NCBI GenBank assembly: GCA_048882045.1
Contig: JBHLRZ010000006.1
Span: 1-64,000 of the forward strand
Length of the DNA: 64,000 nucleotides
Origin: Candidatus Thorarchaeota archaeon
GTDB taxonomy: Archaea; Asgardarchaeota; Thorarchaeia; Thorarchaeales; Thorarchaeaceae
Reading direction: 5' to 3'
Positions within the stretch are counted from its first letter, which is position 1. Each line of letters begins with the position of its first letter. Made by a program: the position numbers and the translations under genes. Below the pieces are notes generated by a model. That model did not search any database, was not told where the DNA came from, and saw nothing but the letters and a program-made list of their open reading frames with translations. Positions 30,822-49,472 of this stretch are shown here, piece by piece.

Positions 30822-31565
30822 TCATTTATCTGTTACCTCTAGAAGCGAGTCAAGTGAGGGCATGATCTCTCCAGCCTTGCCCATCAGGTGAACGTCCGCA
30901 ATAGAGGTCAGCATTGTCTGTTCGACATTGATCTCAATTAAACGTCCTCCTTGCTGTTTCACTACTAAAGGGAACGATGCAGCTGGTTGGACAAAAGCAG
31001 AAGTTCCTATGACGATACAAGCATCAGCTCGTTCGAGTTGAGCGTAGACTTGTTCTATGATGTAGGGATCTAAAGACTCTCCAAACCAGACAACATCTGG
31101 GCGTAAAAGATTGTCACAAATGGGACAAATAGGAATTCCAGATGCAGGAGAGTTTAGTCTCTCTGTATAGTCGCAGAATATGCATTTCAAAGACCATAGG
31201 TCCCCATGGACCTCCAGTACATTCTTGGATCCTACTCGGCGATGAAGTCCATCTACATTCTGCGTTATTAGCGACTTGAGAATGCCTCGCGCCTCCCACA
31301 TGACTAAAGTAGTATGCGCTGGATTCGGCTCACACTCAGCGATCAGCCCTTGTCTCCAGATGTACCATTCCCACACCAGATTTGGATTCCTAGCAAAGGC
31401 GGACGATGTAGCAAGCTCCATTGCATCATACTTTCTCCAAAGCCCATCCTTTCCTCTGAATGTAGGAATATTGGATTCCTTGGAGATTCCTGCGCCAGTC
31501 AGGGCTATCAGATATTCAGACTTATTGATTATGTCAGCAGCTACTTGGAGATTCAGACTTGTCAT
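30822..31565 (-). CDS. cobB: NAD-dependent protein deacylase (sirtuin)
   Basis: TGAGISKES.IPTFRG, PNPAH, TQNVDGLH, HG, CxxC..CxxC, RPDVVWFGE, GTS..VQPAA. Confidence 0.93.
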   Translation of the reverse strand: MTSLNLQVAADIINKSEYLIALTGAGISKESNIPTFRGKDGLWRKYDAMELATSSAFARNPNLVWEWYIWRQGLIAECEPNPAHTTLVMWEARGILKSLITQNVDGLHRRVGSKNVLEVHGDLWSLKCIFCDYTERLNSPASGIPICPICDNLLRPDVVWFGESLDPYIIEQVYAQLERADACIVIGTSAFVQPAASFPLVVKQQGGRLIEINVEQTMLTSIADVHLMGKAGEIMPSLDSLLEVTDK

Positions 31566-37016: not shown

Positions 37017-37643
37017 TTGTCTTCTAGCAATCAATATTCAAAGGCAGAGGTTCTTGTCAAACAGGCCGCCTCATTGATCGAGAAGAAACAGTTCAGTAAG
37101 GCTTTGTCTAAACTGAAACACAGCCTTGCTATGGATCCAAGTAACACGCGAGTCTGGGAAGAGATAGTTGCCTGTAATCTTGAGATGGGGCAACCAAAGC
37201 AAGCAATAGAGGCACTGAATAATCTTCTGAAGATCGAACCAAACTCCTCATCGAGATGGGGTGACAAGGGTCTCATCCATCTTTTGTTGAATGAAAATAC
37301 TCAAGGGATTGAAGCGATTAAAGAGAGTCTGAGGATTCAGCCACGAAATGTGCATAAGTGGGAGCTACTGGCCACAGCCCTCATTGCTGACGAAAGATGG
37401 GATGAGGCGATCGATGCATTGGAAAGAACGCTTGATCTCAATCCTAACTCCGCTGTGACATGGTACAATCTCGCAGTTTGCTATCTCTATTATGAAGATT
37501 TCGGTGCAGCTCTCGAAGCCGTGGAATATGCCATTGCTCTTCAACCATCACTTGAAGATCTTGCGGAACCGTGGGTCGAACTCATTAGTGACGAAATGAT
37601 CGAGGAGGCATACTCACCACTTTCAGGGATAGCTGCTTCATAA
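37017..37643 (+). CDS. Tetratricopeptide repeat protein
   Basis: About five 34-aa repeats ending (D/E/Q/N)P; W..LA..Y......A....ALxLxP pattern. Confidence 0.9.
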   Translation: MSSSNQYSKAEVLVKQAASLIEKKQFSKALSKLKHSLAMDPSNTRVWEEIVACNLEMGQPKQAIEALNNLLKIEPNSSSRWGDKGLIHLLLNENTQGIEAIKESLRIQPRNVHKWELLATALIADERWDEAIDALERTLDLNPNSAVTWYNLAVCYLYYEDFGAALEAVEYAIALQPSLEDLAEPWVELISDEMIEEAYSPLSGIAAS

Positions 37644-37649
37644 CATAAT

Positions 37650-39551
37650 CTAAGATTTTTCTCCTTGAGGAGGTTTGATTTTATCCAATTCTTCTTGGAG
37701 CTGTTTCTCAATCTTACCAAGTTTGAAGTTCTTGGCTGATGCTATCGCCTGTTCTAAGGCAGATATGATTCTCTGCTCTTCTAGCTCTTTCTCAGTATTA
37801 TCTGCAATTTTTGGGAGTGCTTCGATCTTTCTTGGTATGACAGCAAGTAGACTCTCAATTGCGCTCTTCGCTTCATCTCGATTCGTAAATGACGAGTCTT
37901 GCTCAGTATCATAGGATGAAACAATTCTGTCAATCTGACTATAGAGACGTCTATACTCCTCATAGGCTCCAGACAATATCTGCCTTACCTCTCCTTCAGA
38001 ATCTGCTTCTTCAAGTGCATCAGAGAGTTTCTTCATAGCATTCTCAAGGAACTCCTTTCTCTCAGCAAGTTTAGTCCGTTTCCTTTCCATCCATCGCCAT
38101 TCATTCGAGATCTGTCGGGATAGGGTAAGTGCCTCGGTGATTGTTTCTCGAAACTCCGCAAACAGTTCCATTGCTTCCTTAAGTTCCACTTCAAGAGTTT
38201 CTATAACATGAACAAGTTGGTAGCTCAGCATATCACCTGCTTGGGCCTCAGCAAGAACCCTGCTCTCCTTGACGGTTCGTTCAGTATTAGCCCAGAGCTT
38301 CTCTACATCATCAGGATCACGATCTGTCCTCTTTCGGACCTCAAGTTCCTCTGAGAGTTGATGAATGTCATGATTGAGAGCTTGGAGTTCCTGGATCTTT
38401 GCTTTCAACAATGCCTTGCCAAGTCGGACGTTGAGCTCATCTGTGAGTAATTGTCGCTCTTCTGGAACCTCCAAGAGGGCGTGAGTGTTATCAACGAGAG
38501 TCTGAAGAGCGTTCTCATAATCCAAGACTGACTCGTGAAACAGACCCTCTTGATACCTATCATCACCCCTCTTCTCCAACTCAAGAGCGCTCTCTAGAAC
38601 ATCATAGGGAGAAGTTTTCAATAAGCTGTCTGCCCACATCGGAGGGATGTCAGTACAAATGTCGAGTGGTTTTCCTGCGATTCGTAAAAGAATGACTAGA
38701 ATCGATTCTGCGGTTGCTACATAGAGTTTGTCTTGATCCGCAGATATCCAGTTGATCTTCTGACCGTTGAGCTTCACAAGACCTACTTCTTCACCCCTCT
38801 TCAAATCCCAAACAACAATCGATCCTGAAGTCATTGCAGCGACCAGATAAAACTCACTAGCCCACATTGATGAAATAGAACTTGAGTGACTTGGTTCTAA
38901 TGTACGTAGAAGACTCCATTCAACTCTATCATAGACTGCTATCTCACCGGTAGATAATCCTACTATCACAAATTCATTATTACCCGATATTACACCGCCT
39001 TTGCCCTTCTTGTCTAGACTAGCAAGCTCTGAAGGAGCAGAGTTCTGGGACTTTAGCCATACCTTCGGTTCTTCCTTCTTCGTACTAGTACAGATGATTC
39101 GAGCGTCCGACCAGAGGTCCGTGATATCAGACTTATGTAGTTGCCAGCTTGAGGTTTCATGCGTATTCTTCTTGATGGAAACCAATCGTCCCTCTCTCGC
39201 ACCCACGTAGAAGTAGTCACCAGAAAGTGTCGATGTAAGAGCGTGGTAGCTCAGTTCAAACCAACCTTGGAGACCCCAGGTTTCTTTGTTCCAGACATAT
39301 ACTCTTCTCTCACAGGTAGCAAAGACTTGTGTTTCATCAACGTCGACAACCAATGGAGGAGTATCAGTTTCACCGAGTTCAGCTACTAAATGCCAATCTT
39401 CCTTCGACCACACACGGACTCGTTGATCCTCACAAGCAGTGTACAAGTACTTGTCATCATAAGTAATGTCAACTGCTGATGCATCTAGTGTATTAATTAC
39501 CTCATGAGTCAATGTCCTAAGATCATTGGAACTCGATGATCCTTTTTCCAT
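37650..39551 (-). CDS. 7-bladed WD40 beta-propeller + MIT/TPR-like helical bundle + coiled-coil protein
   Basis: Seven blade-like units (LYTACEDQRVRVW, VFATCERRVYVW, FYVGAREGRL, ICTSTKKEEPKVW, VIVGLSTGEIAVYD, LVAAMTSGSIVVWD, LYVATAESIL), then an all-helical E/K/L-rich half. Confidence 0.82.
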   Translation of the reverse strand: MEKGSSSSNDLRTLTHEVINTLDASAVDITYDDKYLYTACEDQRVRVWSKEDWHLVAELGETDTPPLVVDVDETQVFATCERRVYVWNKETWGLQGWFELSYHALTSTLSGDYFYVGAREGRLVSIKKNTHETSSWQLHKSDITDLWSDARIICTSTKKEEPKVWLKSQNSAPSELASLDKKGKGGVISGNNEFVIVGLSTGEIAVYDRVEWSLLRTLEPSHSSSISSMWASEFYLVAAMTSGSIVVWDLKRGEEVGLVKLNGQKINWISADQDKLYVATAESILVILLRIAGKPLDICTDIPPMWADSLLKTSPYDVLESALELEKRGDDRYQEGLFHESVLDYENALQTLVDNTHALLEVPEERQLLTDELNVRLGKALLKAKIQELQALNHDIHQLSEELEVRKRTDRDPDDVEKLWANTERTVKESRVLAEAQAGDMLSYQLVHVIETLEVELKEAMELFAEFRETITEALTLSRQISNEWRWMERKRTKLAERKEFLENAMKKLSDALEEADSEGEVRQILSGAYEEYRRLYSQIDRIVSSYDTEQDSSFTNRDEAKSAIESLLAVIPRKIEALPKIADNTEKELEEQRIISALEQAIASAKNFKLGKIEKQLQEELDKIKPPQGEKS

Positions 39552-39767
39552 AATGTCTCCCCAAGAGAACAGTGTGATGAATGGATATTCTGGGTTTTGC
39601 AATACTTAAGGCAGTTTCTTTCTTGGCTAAACAGCGATAGAATGCAATAAAATGACATCTGGAGGAGGGGATATACATGATAAATTCGTTAAAATGGGAG
39701 GACCCACACAGAAAGAACTTAAGACATCCACCGCCAAATTAGCCCACATTAGACGGAGGTAGGCATC

Positions 39768-42458
39768 TTGGACACTAGTGGCTGGCGCCGAGAATTAGAC
39801 AAAATGGCTGAACTGAAAGGAATCCTAGTCTCAGTCAATCCTGCGATGGAAGAACAGTCAGATCGTCAGGTCAGACAGCTCTATGACATCTTCGCGAACT
39901 TGACTAAGATGGAGAACGATTTAGCAACTTCTGGATTTATGAAAAAGAGAAAGGTTCAGACTCAGGTCGAGAAGACAAGGAGTGATCTTGAAACCGATTT
40001 CATGAGAGTCACACGTGATTTCGCTGAGTACTTCCGGAAAGAACACAAAGATACTCTAGCTATCGCACCGAAAGTCCAGGCCCTAAAACCTTCTGAGGTC
40101 AAAGGGATTTCGACACTTAATTTTCCAGGCATCGGAGCAGGCGACCTCAAGGACTTCGAGAAGTTGCACGAGTTTGCAAAGGCATTTTCAAAGTTGTATC
40201 TTGTTATTCATGAGGATGTAGAACGCGATGTGAAATCTACCCTTGATGAGAACAAGGCTACAGTTGACACGTACGAACGTCACATATCTATCGATAAGAG
40301 TGAGGTTTCCACAACAGTTGCAAATGACGATGTTGCTGGAATGTCATTAAAAGACCTCATAATCCTGAATGACAAACTTCAGGCAGACCGTCAGTTCCTT
40401 GATGGCAGAAAGGACGAGGTGAGTAAACTCCTTGGTTCATCCCTTGTGGGTAAAACGGAATCACTACAAGCTTCTGTGGAGACTGCATCCAGACTAGGAC
40501 TTGAGTTGCCGATCGAATTCTCAAAGGAGTTGAGAATAATTGCCAGAGATGCATCAAAGGCCGAAACTCTGACTGCGCTGATTGCGTTGGAGAATCAACT
40601 GCATGCAGCAGAGGTCAAGATGGCAAATGCACTTCGTGACAAGATAATCAACATCAAGCATGATGTCACAGCCAAGATAGTGGAGGGCGGCATACCAACG
40701 ACTGCTGATGTGATACCTCCAGCACCTCCAGTTACAGTTGAAGGAGAGGGCATTGCTAGCCTGCTTTCCAGCTATCAGAGAATGGTCGAATGGGAAGGTC
40801 AGGTCAAGATCGCTCTCAGAGAACGCTTGTTCGAACTCCTTGATGATGTTGAGAAGGCGACTGAAGCGCCCGAAGACGCAGGTATCAAGGATATTGTTGC
40901 AGTACGTCAATTCATCGCGGATTCAAAGAAGAAACTGAAGCAGGTAGAGATTGACGAGATGGTGAGAGTCTACCTCCAAGCAAAACAGATGGATGATGAG
41001 TACCGAAGGAACATCACTGAGGCCATCCGCAACTATCTCTCAAGATTCAATGAACTAGCAACTTCAGCAGACAGAGTACTTGACCACGCACAGCTAAGTA
41101 AGAAGGCTCCGAAGGTCGAGGAACTTGAAGGAGGTATTGTCTACTTACTAGGTTCTCTCACGAGCCTCAGAGAAGCAGTTGACAGCGGAGTGGCAACTTT
41201 TCGCACCGCATGTCAACAGGAGATTGATGCAATAGTTCATGATCTTCAGACCGTCAAACCTGCATATGCTGAGATATTCATGCCCATTATTGTAGAACTC
41301 GATGAAGGATCAACCAGGATACAGGGGATGGATGACTTCTCTGAGATAAAATCAGAGATGCGCTCCATCAAAGATGGTATCCTTGTGAAAGCACAGGACG
41401 CACTTGAGAACCTCAGATATAGACTAGGTGTGAAGATCAGACTTGCAGCTGCAAAATTGATGGGTGCTGGTGTGGAGATCCCGCCAGACGCACAAGAAGC
41501 CATCAGCGAACTGAACAGCGTGGGTGTTGCAGCTGATAATGTGTTTAGTCTTCCAGCCATAGCCAGGAAGATGGTTGAGATCTATGAGAAGAAGATCCAA
41601 GACAAGATAATTGAGAAACTTGGAGTAGAAGTCGATTCTCTAATCACGAGTCTCGATAGAGCAAGCAGCATCGGAGTGAAGTTAGGAAAAGAACTCAAGA
41701 TGCTCAATGGTCTAAAAGCCAAACCACCAGCAGAGCTTGAGGAAGCAGCTGATGCATTTGACAAACTCCAGAATCTGACAACATCACCCAACGTTCACAA
41801 GAAGATCAGAGAGCGTGTTGATGAAGCCTATGTTCAGATCAAGGGAGCTCTGTCACTCTTTGAAGACCAAGGAATGTCTGAATTCGTCGAGCGGCTACAG
41901 ATTCTCATTGACCAAGTTCCTGCCAAGCTCGAAACTGACTCACCACATGTCAATGAGGCACTTGATGTGTGTCTCACTCTTGCCAACATCCAGGAAGAAA
42001 TGCTTCAGATGATTAAGAGCATAGCTGAGAAGAATGGTGAGGCTCATACTGCTGAACTCAAGGATAGAAGCCAGTACTTTTCGACAATCGAGAGAGTAGT
42101 AGCGAAGTATCCTGATGAATTCAGCAAGATAGTATTTGATGTCAAGAAGATGGACTCTCTAGAGTCTGGCCTCACAGAGGCGGTCGATCTTGATGTGGCC
42201 ATTGCTAACTTCCATGAATTGGGCGATATGAGAAAGCAGTGGCTGGAGAAAGCAGTCGCGATGGATGACTGGCACAAGTCCCTCAGAATGTTCATGACTG
42301 GTTTCAGTCCGACTGACAAACCTGATACACGTGACAAGTTCATCGACGACGCAATACGAAAGATTAAGGAGACCTACAGCCGTGAGGACATAAGTTCGTA
42401 CCTAAGTTGGGCCATAAGAGAGAGTGCCCAGGCGTTGGTCGATTCGAGGAAGAAATAG
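39768..42458 (+). CDS. 896-aa all-helical rod protein with degenerate ~65-aa repeat; first gene of tubulin-like operon
   Basis: Strong SD GGAGGT before TTG; long amphipathic helices; periodic G-hydrophobic turns; no TM or NTPase motif. Confidence 0.8.
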   Translation: MDTSGWRRELDKMAELKGILVSVNPAMEEQSDRQVRQLYDIFANLTKMENDLATSGFMKKRKVQTQVEKTRSDLETDFMRVTRDFAEYFRKEHKDTLAIAPKVQALKPSEVKGISTLNFPGIGAGDLKDFEKLHEFAKAFSKLYLVIHEDVERDVKSTLDENKATVDTYERHISIDKSEVSTTVANDDVAGMSLKDLIILNDKLQADRQFLDGRKDEVSKLLGSSLVGKTESLQASVETASRLGLELPIEFSKELRIIARDASKAETLTALIALENQLHAAEVKMANALRDKIINIKHDVTAKIVEGGIPTTADVIPPAPPVTVEGEGIASLLSSYQRMVEWEGQVKIALRERLFELLDDVEKATEAPEDAGIKDIVAVRQFIADSKKKLKQVEIDEMVRVYLQAKQMDDEYRRNITEAIRNYLSRFNELATSADRVLDHAQLSKKAPKVEELEGGIVYLLGSLTSLREAVDSGVATFRTACQQEIDAIVHDLQTVKPAYAEIFMPIIVELDEGSTRIQGMDDFSEIKSEMRSIKDGILVKAQDALENLRYRLGVKIRLAAAKLMGAGVEIPPDAQEAISELNSVGVAADNVFSLPAIARKMVEIYEKKIQDKIIEKLGVEVDSLITSLDRASSIGVKLGKELKMLNGLKAKPPAELEEAADAFDKLQNLTTSPNVHKKIRERVDEAYVQIKGALSLFEDQGMSEFVERLQILIDQVPAKLETDSPHVNEALDVCLTLANIQEEMLQMIKSIAEKNGEAHTAELKDRSQYFSTIERVVAKYPDEFSKIVFDVKKMDSLESGLTEAVDLDVAIANFHELGDMRKQWLEKAVAMDDWHKSLRMFMTGFSPTDKPDTRDKFIDDAIRKIKETYSREDISSYLSWAIRESAQALVDSRKK

Positions 42459-42470
42459 GAGTAAACACCA

Positions 42471-43862
42471 ATGTTCGGAAGTAGTCCACCTAGAACCCCC
42501 ATTGAAGACGATACCACAAAAGCAGCCGAGGTTTTCGCCATTGGAATTGGCGAATGTGGCTCAAACATCGTGGGATCCTACCTTCAGACAAGCAGGGACA
42601 AGAAACTACCCTCAAGAGTGAGGGGCTATCTACTCATCAACACTGACAGAGCAGACCTGACAAAGGTACGCCAAAAATATGGCATACCAAAAGAGAACAC
42701 ACTCCTATATGGTGCCAGCGAAATCGGTGTCGGTGGCCGGTTCATGGATGGTTATAATAGTATCATGGAATCAAAGGACATCATCTTCGACCAGCTCAGT
42801 AACTTGGGTTTCGAAGGCGTTTCAGGCTTCTGTATCTTCACAAGCCTTGGCGGTGGAACTGGTTGCGGAGGTACACCAGCACTCATCGAGCTGCTCAAGC
42901 AGAGATTCCAAGAAGAAGAAGGACGACGTATCTTTGTATATGTCATAGGAATCTTGCCCTTCGAGGGACAGTCTAGTGAGGCACTGAATTCAATCTGGGC
43001 TGTATCGAAGTTGCTTCGAGCTCAGCTCCAAGAACGTGGTGCAGACCTTACAATTCTACTATCAAACAGAACAATGCTGAAGAGAATCCTTCAATGGAGA
43101 AAGGGTGATACTGTAGACTACCTGCAGCGAGAGCTAGAGGTGGACATTGCAGACATCGAATCAATCGAAAAAATGGTCCCATCTACACTTGAGGAAGCGA
43201 GTGCAGCTGACGCGAGAACCGAACAGGCATTCGTCGAACTCGTCAACCCACTTGCTCTTGATGTCGTGGAGGCCATGTTATCACCAGGTGTGTGGGAAAA
43301 ATCAAAGGATGTCTTTCCAACCACAGATCTTGCAGACTATGCTAGAAAGCTAGATCCTGTTGTAGTACCTGCGCTCTATACTGACATTGGTCTCATACCT
43401 GACGCTGGGAGTATGCCCAAGCAGTTGAGGACAATGATTGACTATGCTGTGAAGGAGTGTTCATACGCTGACGTCGGTGAAGAACCGAATGCCGAGAGTG
43501 TCTACTATGTGATGTCAGGTCCAAGGCATGTTGCGAAAGCAGAATTTGGGATGCATGTGAAGGAAGCACTGGACAAGTTCATTGCTCCCGGTGCAGCTAT
43601 CACACCTTGTTACGTCCAATACCTTGACCAAGACCCTAAGACCAACCTGCTTCTTCTCCTTGGCTTGCCAAAGATACCTGAACTTGTTCAGATCATCAAT
43701 GAAGCTACCCAGCTGGTGAATCTTCACAGTGGTGCCTCACCACTCAAGCAAGGATGGTTCATGAGGTCGAAGGGTACTACTCGAAAAGAACTCGTTGATG
43801 CTATCAATGACTTCCGTGAACTCTTCAGTTACTACATGACTCCAGGAGAAACAATGGAATAG
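42471..43862 (+). CDS. Divergent tubulin/FtsZ/CetZ-superfamily GTPase
   Basis: T1 IGIGECGSNI, T2 LINTD, T3 GVGGRFMDG, T4 SLGGGTGCGG, T5 ILPFEG, T6 LLSN, T7 TTDLADY. Confidence 0.92.
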   Translation: MFGSSPPRTPIEDDTTKAAEVFAIGIGECGSNIVGSYLQTSRDKKLPSRVRGYLLINTDRADLTKVRQKYGIPKENTLLYGASEIGVGGRFMDGYNSIMESKDIIFDQLSNLGFEGVSGFCIFTSLGGGTGCGGTPALIELLKQRFQEEEGRRIFVYVIGILPFEGQSSEALNSIWAVSKLLRAQLQERGADLTILLSNRTMLKRILQWRKGDTVDYLQRELEVDIADIESIEKMVPSTLEEASAADARTEQAFVELVNPLALDVVEAMLSPGVWEKSKDVFPTTDLADYARKLDPVVVPALYTDIGLIPDAGSMPKQLRTMIDYAVKECSYADVGEEPNAESVYYVMSGPRHVAKAEFGMHVKEALDKFIAPGAAITPCYVQYLDQDPKTNLLLLLGLPKIPELVQIINEATQLVNLHSGASPLKQGWFMRSKGTTRKELVDAINDFRELFSYYMTPGETME

Positions 43863-43878
43863 AAACGGTGGTGTCAAA

Positions 43879-44946
43879 TTGTCTGACTCTTCATTCCACT
43901 ACGAGGACCTTATCGATAGGCTTCTTCTTATAATCACCCTGAACTCGACACTGATCCACTTTCTCTTAGGCTCACAGGTTGAGGACAGCATAGATCCGGA
44001 CCGGGTTGATTCTTTGACTCAAGGACTTGTTAGAACCCGGAAGTGGATGGAAGAGGCAACCACAATGAAAGGCATCCCTCCTTCAACACAGAATATCATG
44101 AGCCTCATTGTAAAGCGACTCTCACAGGTTGAGAGTCTTCTGCCCAAGCTATCAAACAAAGCGAAGCAAATGGAGTCTGGTGCCGCAACACAGGAGATCC
44201 TCTCCCTATTGGATGGAGCTGAAGCTGCTCCGAGAGCTGCTAGTGCAAGTCCTGATTCTTCAACAACAACTGCAGATGGCGAGATTATCCCACTTGTTGG
44301 TGGTGAAACAGCCAAGCCAATGGAGGCATATCGTAAGGTCGATGTCGAAGATGACCAGTTTGGTCTCATCGGACAGAGTCAGCGGCTCATTCAGCAGAAG
44401 AGTGCTTCTTGTCACGTGCTGCTTCCAACATTTTGGTTAGAAGTCCTTAGAGAGATCCATAGGTATCGCTCAGATTCGCCCTATTTTGGAGACGTAGTTG
44501 AGTTACCCGCTCGCATACTAGTAAAGACAGCTAAGGGACTTCTGACAGAGGCCCCAGGTGCAAGACTTCTCCAGGATCTAATGAAGTCAAGACAACAGGA
44601 GAATTACCTCAACCCATCAGAAATGGAACGAATAGAACGTGCTGTCGCAAAATACTACCAGGGAGTTGAGCCCATACTGAGAGAGAAAGAGGTTGAGGTC
44701 AAAGACAAGATACTCGAAGCCCAGACAGCTTTCGATGGGTTCAACTGGGGTGGTCCAGAATTGGAAAAGAGGATCATAAAGCGATTGAATCAGCAGGTAG
44801 AAGAAGCAATTCAAGCAGCTGAAACAGGAACCGATACCGCTCGTCAGGTCATCCATGCAGAAATTGCTAAGTTACTCTGCAAACTTCAACATGCTCTTCT
44901 GGCTGAACCGAGACCCCGAGAGATCCTCACTCAGATGAAACCATAG
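43879..44946 (+). CDS. Helical hypothetical protein, third gene of tubulin-like operon
   Basis: 16 nt after the GTPase, SD GGTGGTG; N-terminal helical bundle, A/S/T/P linker, C-terminal helical domain. Confidence 0.78.
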   Translation: MSDSSFHYEDLIDRLLLIITLNSTLIHFLLGSQVEDSIDPDRVDSLTQGLVRTRKWMEEATTMKGIPPSTQNIMSLIVKRLSQVESLLPKLSNKAKQMESGAATQEILSLLDGAEAAPRAASASPDSSTTTADGEIIPLVGGETAKPMEAYRKVDVEDDQFGLIGQSQRLIQQKSASCHVLLPTFWLEVLREIHRYRSDSPYFGDVVELPARILVKTAKGLLTEAPGARLLQDLMKSRQQENYLNPSEMERIERAVAKYYQGVEPILREKEVEVKDKILEAQTAFDGFNWGGPELEKRIIKRLNQQVEEAIQAAETGTDTARQVIHAEIAKLLCKLQHALLAEPRPREILTQMKP

Positions 44947-48252: not shown

Positions 48253-48326
48253 AAGCAAGTTCAGTGTTCACTATTCACTGGATATTCAGAAAGAGTAATG
48301 TGTCGGATTGTTTCGATGATAGTGAA

Positions 48327-49472
48327 ATGAGAGGAAAATTAGTTTATCCCTATTCTGATGCACTGCTAGGCTATGAGTTTCGACAGGATCATCCACTAAA
48401 ACCAGAAAGGCTAAAGCTCACCTATCTCCTTTCTAAGGAGCTTGGACTCCTTGACAAAATCGAGGTACTCGAACCAAATCATGCTACCCGGGAGGAACTC
48501 GAACTCTTTCATTCTCCAGAGTTTATTGATGCTGTAGAGGATAGTGGAATGAACAACAATCCACATCCAAGGTATGGATTGGGAACTTCTGATAATCCGA
48601 TTTTTCCTCAGGTTCATGACACTGGATTGAGGTATGTTGGAGCAACCCTGGATGCTATGAGAGCCATAATGGAAGGAGCATCCAATGCATTCTGTATCTC
48701 TGGAGGACTTCACCATGCACACAAGAGTCTAGCCTCTGGATTTTGTATCTATAATGATGTAGTAATAGCAATCAAATTGATGCAACAGCAAAGGAAGGCA
48801 AAGGTGCTCTACCTAGATATTGATGCACATCACGGCGATGGTGTCCAGAAGGCTTTCTTCGATTCGAAAGATGTATTGACTATTTCCATACATCAAACAG
48901 GGCAAACTCTCTTTCCAGGAACAGGATATGTCTACGAAACTGGAAGTGGAGAAGCAGCAGGTTATTCTGTAAACGTTCCTCTCTTGCCTGGTGCAGGAAC
49001 GCCAGAGCTCAATCAAATTTTCGAGGAGATAATTATACCATTGTTTGAGTCCTACAAACCCGATTTACTAGTGACTCAGCTTGGAGTTGATGGGCATTTC
49101 TTGGATCCACTTGCTCAGCTAGCATATACATCTCATGGCTTTGAGAGTATACTTGAAAGACTACGAGATATGTCATCTAAGAAATGTAAGATGGGATGGC
49201 TGGCGGTTGGAGGCGGAGGATATCATCCTGTCAATGTTGCTCGACTCTGGACCCTCTTTCTAGCCATTATGATAAAGGAGAAGGTGTCTGATGAGATTCC
49301 CGATACATTTCGTGAGATGAGTTCCGAAATGGGTTACAAAAATATTCCTGACCTGATGAGAGATGAGGAAGAAGTTGTTCAGATGTATGTTCCCAGAGAG
49401 GTGGTTTCACTGGAACTTGACCGGACCATCAGGAGGATAAAGGAACTGATATTCCCCTATCACGGTCTGTAA
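48327..49472 (+). CDS. Zn-dependent deacetylase, AcuC / class I HDAC-like
   Basis: HPLKP.R, DNP.F, GGLHHA, SGFCIYND, DIDAHHGDGVQ, FPGTG, NVPL, G.D...DPL, GGGGY. Confidence 0.92.
   Translation: MRGKLVYPYSDALLGYEFRQDHPLKPERLKLTYLLSKELGLLDKIEVLEPNHATREELELFHSPEFIDAVEDSGMNNNPHPRYGLGTSDNPIFPQVHDTGLRYVGATLDAMRAIMEGASNAFCISGGLHHAHKSLASGFCIYNDVVIAIKLMQQQRKAKVLYLDIDAHHGDGVQKAFFDSKDVLTISIHQTGQTLFPGTGYVYETGSGEAAGYSVNVPLLPGAGTPELNQIFEEIIIPLFESYKPDLLVTQLGVDGHFLDPLAQLAYTSHGFESILERLRDMSSKKCKMGWLAVGGGGYHPVNVARLWTLFLAIMIKEKVSDEIPDTFREMSSEMGYKNIPDLMRDEEEVVQMYVPREVVSLELDRTIRRIKELIFPYHGL

Follow-up and report, generated by a model that had tools for sequence, protein, structure and literature searches.

A conserved three-gene locus linking a tubulin-superfamily GTPase to two helical proteins in Asgard archaea

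Comparison with described tubulin-like systems

CetZ proteins are the archaeal cell-shape tubulin-like proteins; their genes occur mostly in Euryarchaeota and are not known to be accompanied by the partners described below. A CetZ-like group of Asgard archaea, Asg.Tub, was named by Santana-Molina et al. (2023) with four sequences, identified in the supplement as OLS26264.1, Thorarchaeota AB-25 OLS30664.1, Thorarchaeota KXH77455.1 and Heimdall PWI48967.1; its position between CetZ and tubulins was unstable, trees put it outside the supported canonical CetZ node and next to Halo.Tub, and its neighbours were noted as unknown proteins with coiled-coil regions (PMC9871819). Here, a member of this group was analysed in a 64,000-nt stretch of Candidatus Thorarchaeota DNA (positions 1 to 64,000 of contig JBHLRZ010000006.1, assembly GCA_048882045.1; hereafter the window), where the GTPase gene (TUB) lies between the genes of two all-helical proteins (ROD and HEL). 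ROD, TUB and HEL form one unit, with a fixed order, a common strand, tight or overlapping spacing and the same phyletic pattern in Asgard archaea.

On sequence grounds, TUB belongs to the Asg.Tub orthologous group: its 50%-identical homologue P0112 is OLS26264.1, and the C-terminus of OLS30664.1 matches that of TUB nearly letter for letter. The published account of the family comprised four sequences, without partner families, synteny analysis or function (PMC9871819), whereas the family is traced here to 115 of 301 Asgard genomes, together with two obligate partners. Full-text literature searches yielded neither a functional study of Asg.Tub nor an account of the trio as a conserved operon. 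The initial annotation of the window, made from its letters, had presented the system as undescribed; this stands for the trio and its function, but the GTPase family had already been named and its coiled-coil neighbours mentioned. The GTPase family was known, though, like its partners, uncharacterised.

Among solved structures, the best sequence matches to TUB were the CetZ entries of the PDB (4b46, 4b45 and 3zid, listed in no particular order; E 9e-12 to 2e-6), which comprise CetZ1, CetZ2 and a Methanosaeta CetZ. Like TUB, CetZ is a tubulin-superfamily member that comes in addition to FtsZ1 and FtsZ2. The match is however confined to the N-terminal ~150 residues, i.e. the GTPase domain, with a weak co-linear match at the last strand and the following helix. 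TUB has its own insertion of ~45 residues between T6 and H7, poorly conserved and acidic, and a C-terminal half that is specific to the family and has no match among other tubulin families. True tubulins, AtubA, OdinTubulin-like proteins and BtubA/B matched TUB more weakly than CetZ (E 5e-5 to 5e-4) and in the T3-T5 region only, and no full-length closeness to alpha/beta-tubulin (AtubA/B, OdinTubulin, BtubA/B) was found. The FtsZ equivalog TIGR00065 gave 31 bits against a cut-off of 295.2.

Dedicated loci around other tubulin-like GTPases offer further comparisons. Halo.Tub, likewise a non-canonical CetZ-like GTPase, is encoded in a multi-gene locus of its own, the Halo_adaptin locus, beside 'adaptin-like' proteins with WD40/PQQ propellers; that locus also has a Vps4-like ATPase and PspA/ESCRT-III-like, winged-helix and Ig-like proteins (PMC10936438). 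The TUB locus has none of these last four. FtsZ with EzrA, ZapA and SepF, and BtubA/B with BtubC, follow the same logic, in that a tubulin-superfamily polymer is bundled, anchored or stabilised by helical or repeat proteins, but ROD and HEL showed no sequence match or specific fold match to EzrA, ZapA, SepF or BtubC. The BtubABC genes also form an operon. TubZRC type III partition systems resemble the TUB locus as small operons around a divergent tubulin-like GTPase; in contrast, neither iterons or other centromere repeats nor a TubR-like DNA-binding partner were found beside TUB, whose context is chromosomal and housekeeping.

Conservation of the three-gene core

Loci were scanned in one genome per species, which returned 80 loci, and the window proteins were compared with them by tblastn. 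Wherever the flanks were long enough, TUB was immediately preceded by ROD and immediately followed by HEL, and the record titles included Thor, Sif, Borr, Hermod and Heimdall names. Outside Thorarchaeota, identity to the window was 56-63% for TUB, 20-29% for ROD and 25-28% for HEL. The gaps within the trio were mostly 0-19 nt, and stop and start codons overlapped in several lineages. Profile hidden Markov models placed the trio in four further lineage groups (five loci from whole-genome matches), and a locus of GCA_054014235.1 (L090:541-7809) also held it, with an enlarged ROD (1311 aa) and HEL (602 aa); the 286 extra N-terminal residues of this HEL had no Pfam match. Overall, the arrangement recurred in 80+ loci of ten lineage groups (Thorarchaeota, Hermod, Borr/Sif, Heimdall-like and others), with order, strand and tight spacing kept. 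When the open reading frames (ORFs) of 21 representative loci were clustered, ROD, TUB and HEL were the only families common to 9-10 of the ten lineage groups, and any other neighbour family occurred in no more than three.

At the genome level, the HEL profile matched 114 of the 301 genomes searched for TUB, and the ROD profile matched 53 of 121 genomes, each at least 90% complete. All three were present in genome families f1, f2, f6, f8, f12, f15, f16 and f22, while f29, which is not in the ROD sample, had TUB and HEL. The three also shared the families in which none of them was found among the genomes searched, such as f9 (0/68), f5 (0/28), f14 and f27. ROD and HEL matches adjoined TUB on the same contig, except at contig breaks. 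Flanking genes unlinked from the GTPase elsewhere, which the initial annotation had named as a refutation, were therefore not seen: in all lineages compared, the orthologues of both were linked to TUB, and no case of either one without TUB was found.

Some loci departed from this layout. A second copy, at a distant site in two Heimdall-like genomes (G259 and G139; L081:8420-13180 and L086:5560-10331), consisted of a more divergent pair of ROD (~1140 aa) and TUB (~441 aa). This second pair was seen in several f22 genomes, where the next gene is convergent, encodes 740 aa and is not HEL; a 311-aa gene upstream of the second ROD was also considered and proved not to be a HEL relative. In one thorarchaeotal genome (L092:4643-12857; G037:C69), ~8 kb was inserted between TUB and HEL, comprising a 618-aa gene on the operon strand followed by HEAT-repeat, TPR and esterase-like proteins on the other strand, and two sister genomes of the same genus had only ~200-400 nt between these genes.

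Features of the three proteins and of the locus

The assignment of the middle gene to the tubulin superfamily, made in the initial annotation, was borne out by a match to PF00091 (Tubulin) over residues 20-204 (E 1.2e-19; 71.8 bits, with the gathering score at 33). Across 15 aligned members with 50-100% identity, the loops GxGECGxN (T1), GVGG (T3), GGGTGCGG (T4), PF (T5) and SN (T6) were invariant, and T4 had a Cys in place of the Ser/Thr of the GGGTG(S/T)G signature. TUB thus carries the T4 signature and the conserved T1, T3, T5 and T6 loops that characterise the tubulin/FtsZ superfamily. The same alignment showed an invariant P-x-T-D-x-x-D (P283, T285, D286 and D289, in 'PTTDLADY'), preceded by a helix resembling FtsZ H7 ('AFVELVN'); at the motif level, TDxxD is probably the T7 loop. 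Another candidate for T7, 'VNPLAL', in which the catalytic acids would be missing, was dropped given the invariant TDxxD and the H7-like helix, and a MAFFT alignment that set T7 of FtsZ against a non-conserved stretch of the TUB insertion was judged to be wrong there.

Between Asgard classes, TUB was about as conserved as FtsZ1, with identities to G000, for TUB and FtsZ1 respectively, of 57% vs 45% in G259, 62% vs 59% in G041 and 63% vs 62% in G060. The divergence of TUB did not track that of FtsZ1: the Heimdall-like G259 contrasted with f15 and f8 (G029 and G007), where TUB was 43-45% identical to the window and FtsZ1 was at 64-65%. The mismatch points to unequal rates, to hidden paralogy or to transfer within Asgard archaea.

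Both flanking proteins were all-helical in AlphaFold2 models, in agreement with the initial annotation, with a pLDDT of 86 for ROD and 83 for HEL. The ROD model comprised ~33 helices in antiparallel bundles, and its low pTM (0.39) fits an elongated multi-domain shape. A ~65-residue periodicity considered for ROD was not retained: when profiles of its 130-residue segments were compared, the highest probability was 56% (E 1e-4), which is no solid repeat signal. HEL was predicted to consist of an N-terminal three-helix bundle (residues 8-111), a disordered and sequence-variable linker (103-144) and a well-predicted C-terminal helical domain (150-355). This last domain has the conserved motif LLxEAPGARLLQ and contains all the residues that are invariant in the family alignment (H179, P183, E224-A225-P226, G291, E296 and R298).

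Searches for relatives of ROD and HEL returned nothing specific. Neither had a Pfam or NCBIfam family, PDB sequence and profile searches gave nothing for either, and no PDB structure was matched by Foldseek at E <= 0.001. A wide VIA-align comparison yielded generic three-helix and helical-bundle rows only, with Z up to ~11-12, the expected range for helical models, and barely covered the C-terminal domain of HEL and the greater part of ROD. In the ESM Atlas, the best TM of a shape search with HEL was 0.38, and a feature search gave nothing for HEL and retrieved only its own cluster for ROD. Among 1.84 billion proteins, the HEL family amounted to 50 cluster representatives without a tail of distant relatives, and no HEL relative was detectable outside these clusters. 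Complex prediction for TUB and HEL (ipSAE 0.00 and 0.01) weighs neither for nor against binding.

The layout of the locus (Table 1) agreed with the initial annotation as to the three same-strand genes, their spacing and their three Shine-Dalgarno sites. ROD and TUB are 12 nt apart and TUB and HEL 16 nt. The ribosome-binding site of ROD (GGAGGT, 39755-39760) lies 7 nt ahead of its start codon, that of TUB (AGGAGT) overlaps the ROD stop codon, and that of HEL (GGTGGTG) precedes its start codon. The divergent WD40 gene and the TPR gene converging on it are also present, with 6 nt from stop to stop. The length of the divergent intergenic region depends on the start of the WD40 gene: 165 nt with the longest ORF and 216 nt with ATG 39551, which is the likelier start because most homologues are ~633 aa long, and which fits the ~215 bp given initially.

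Table 1. Positions of the operon genes and adjoining features in the window
Feature	Positions	Strand	Description
TPR protein gene	37017-37643	+	208 aa; TPR_2 E 5e-23; converges on WD40 gene
WD40 beta-propeller + helical/coiled-coil gene	37650-39602	-	650 aa as longest ORF; 633 aa from ATG 39551
Divergent intergenic region	39603-39767	.	carries the Thorarchaeota-conserved motif ACACAGAAnnACTTAAGA
ROD, operon gene 1	39768-42458	+	896 aa; all-helical; TTG start
TUB, operon gene 2	42471-43862	+	463 aa; tubulin/FtsZ-superfamily GTPase; Asg.Tub (CetZ-like) group
HEL, operon gene 3	43879-44946	+	355 aa; helical; TTG start

The motif ACACAGAAnnACTTAAGA (39706-39724), ~45-60 nt ahead of the ROD start, was conserved in an alignment of 12 thorarchaeotal upstream regions and is a putative promoter. 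A second CTTAAG palindrome was observed at ~39605-39612, at the WD40-gene end of the intergenic region. The two elements may be divergent promoters or a shared operator.

The WD40 protein matched many WD40 beta-propeller Pfam families over residues 40-305, with E values from 1e-10 to 1e-5 and with every score under the cut-off of its family. Its C-terminal half is helical and returned nothing in PDB sequence and profile searches; the 'MIT-like' label initially given to the gene had no Pfam or PDB support. The gene was upstream in 38 of 41 thorarchaeotal loci and in no other lineage's loci, and among the best 120 of its 216 homologues nearly all were labelled Thorarchaeota or had no label. Similarly, the TPR gene was present in all 41 thorarchaeotal loci with enough flank and absent from the loci of other lineages. 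Both had been noted beside the operon in the initial annotation; being linked in Thorarchaeota only, they are outside the conserved module, whose core is of three genes and not five.

The source genome (3.6 Mb, 93% complete) is from an Asgard archaeon, as had been proposed, of the Thorarchaeota type, and the window proteins were 85-97% identical to those of Candidatus Thorarchaeota metagenome-assembled genomes. The flanking genes are metabolic or housekeeping, encoding a lactate permease, an epimerase, Sir2, an enoyl-CoA hydratase, an ADP-forming CoA ligase, an FMN-dependent dehydrogenase family enzyme, an HDAC-type deacetylase and a DNA ligase. No division, ribosomal or tubR/centromere genes were found near the operon, in line with the initial annotation, nor were any ESCRT or partition genes, and two canonical ftsZ genes are on other contigs of the genome, making TUB its third tubulin-superfamily gene. 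The Sir2-family gene (30822-31565, minus strand) is ~8 kb upstream of the operon and the HDAC-family gene (48264-49472, plus strand) 3.3 kb downstream. Eukaryotic members of both families deacetylate tubulin; their presence near a tubulin-like operon is probably a coincidence.

Proposed function and significance

The explanation that we favour, and consider somewhat probable, is that the trio is a self-contained operon, present in part of the Asgard archaea, for a GTP-dependent filament and two dedicated partners. TUB would bind GTP and assemble head-to-tail into protofilaments, and hydrolysis would be set off by the invariant TDxxD of the adjoining subunit, as it is in FtsZ, CetZ and tubulin. 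ROD, a ~900-aa multi-bundle protein, could run along filaments or between them as an elongated scaffold or cross-linker, and HEL, with its bundle, flexible linker and globular helical domain, could serve as adaptor or regulator by tethering the filament to some other structure. Any membrane link of the trio would be indirect, since ROD, TUB and HEL are soluble and acidic and have no transmembrane segment. In Thorarchaeota, the WD40-coiled-coil and TPR proteins, encoded on the opposite side of the shared intergenic region, may be lineage-specific add-ons.

Several points weigh against this filament model. ROD and HEL have no recognisable domain, so that the roles given to them are guesses from predicted shape. 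The T7 assignment is motif-based, and the hhalign alignment of TUB with the genome's own FtsZ covers residues 18-144 only. HEL is not always needed, because the second ROD-TUB pair of Heimdall-like genomes lacks it. Finally, the constraint on TUB is uneven, because in f15 and f8 it is 43-45% identical while FtsZ1 is 64-65% identical.

Alternatively, TUB might form not filaments but a defined hetero-oligomer with ROD and HEL, serving as a nucleotide-dependent switch, a nucleator or an assembly factor, in the manner of gamma-tubulin with its helical GCPs or of Misato. The strict 1:1:1 gene linkage and the overlapping stop and start codons would suit a stoichiometric complex, the helical ROD is in the size class of GCPs, and the T6-H7 insertion and family-specific C-terminal half of TUB are compatible with such a role. 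However, TDxxD, which is important in polymer-dependent hydrolysis, is invariant, no GCP/GRIP Pfam match was found at E up to 1, and no GCP chain was among the fold matches; this explanation appears unlikely. The trio could also assist in membrane remodelling or protein sorting, the role proposed for Halo.Tub with its ESCRT-like Halo_adaptin locus and for FtsZl1 systems, an explanation that overlaps the filament model. It draws on the branching of Asg.Tub beside Halo.Tub (PMC9871819), on the propeller proteins that accompany Halo.Tub (PMC10936438) and on the divergent pairing of the WD40-coiled-coil gene with the operon in Thorarchaeota. As no ESCRT-III, Vps4 or membrane protein is encoded within ~12 kb on either side, no such neighbour is conserved, the WD40 link is restricted to Thorarchaeota and the trio has no transmembrane segment, we consider it improbable as well.

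A TubZ-type role in DNA segregation, with one of the helical proteins as a centromere-binding adaptor, is very improbable. TubZ systems, too, combine a divergent tubulin-like GTPase with small partners in a small operon, but no iterons and no tandem or clustered repeats were found in or around the operon, Pfam and NCBIfam revealed no DNA-binding domain in ROD or HEL, and TUB is a single chromosomal copy in housekeeping surroundings with conserved thorarchaeotal synteny. PADLOC and PHROGs scans gave insignificant matches only, the sole defence-library match being JetD, with no phage signal. That the three genes are merely neighbours without a common function is hardly credible, as their order, strand and tight spacing are kept in ten lineage groups at partner identities as low as 20-29% and their phyletic patterns are identical.

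The actin, ESCRT and true tubulin systems of Asgard archaea are being studied intensely, and Asg.Tub has so far been only an outgroup or oddity in tubulin trees. In its furthest form, which we regard as speculative and doubtful, the filament model would mean that some Asgard archaea, Heimdall-like lineages among them, have a third tubulin-superfamily cytoskeleton, a filament system not recognised before, independent of FtsZ division genes, as conserved as FtsZ and with two obligate partners of new fold, which shapes cell architecture and is an early example of the partnership between tubulin and dedicated binding proteins that eukaryotes later elaborated. With a GTPase that occurs widely across several Asgard classes, is under FtsZ-like constraint and is tied to two partners without known relatives, the trio offers experimenters a defined three-protein system for expression and imaging, and ROD and HEL, as two sizeable families of unknown function with confidently predicted folds, would join the candidate cytoskeletal accessory proteins.

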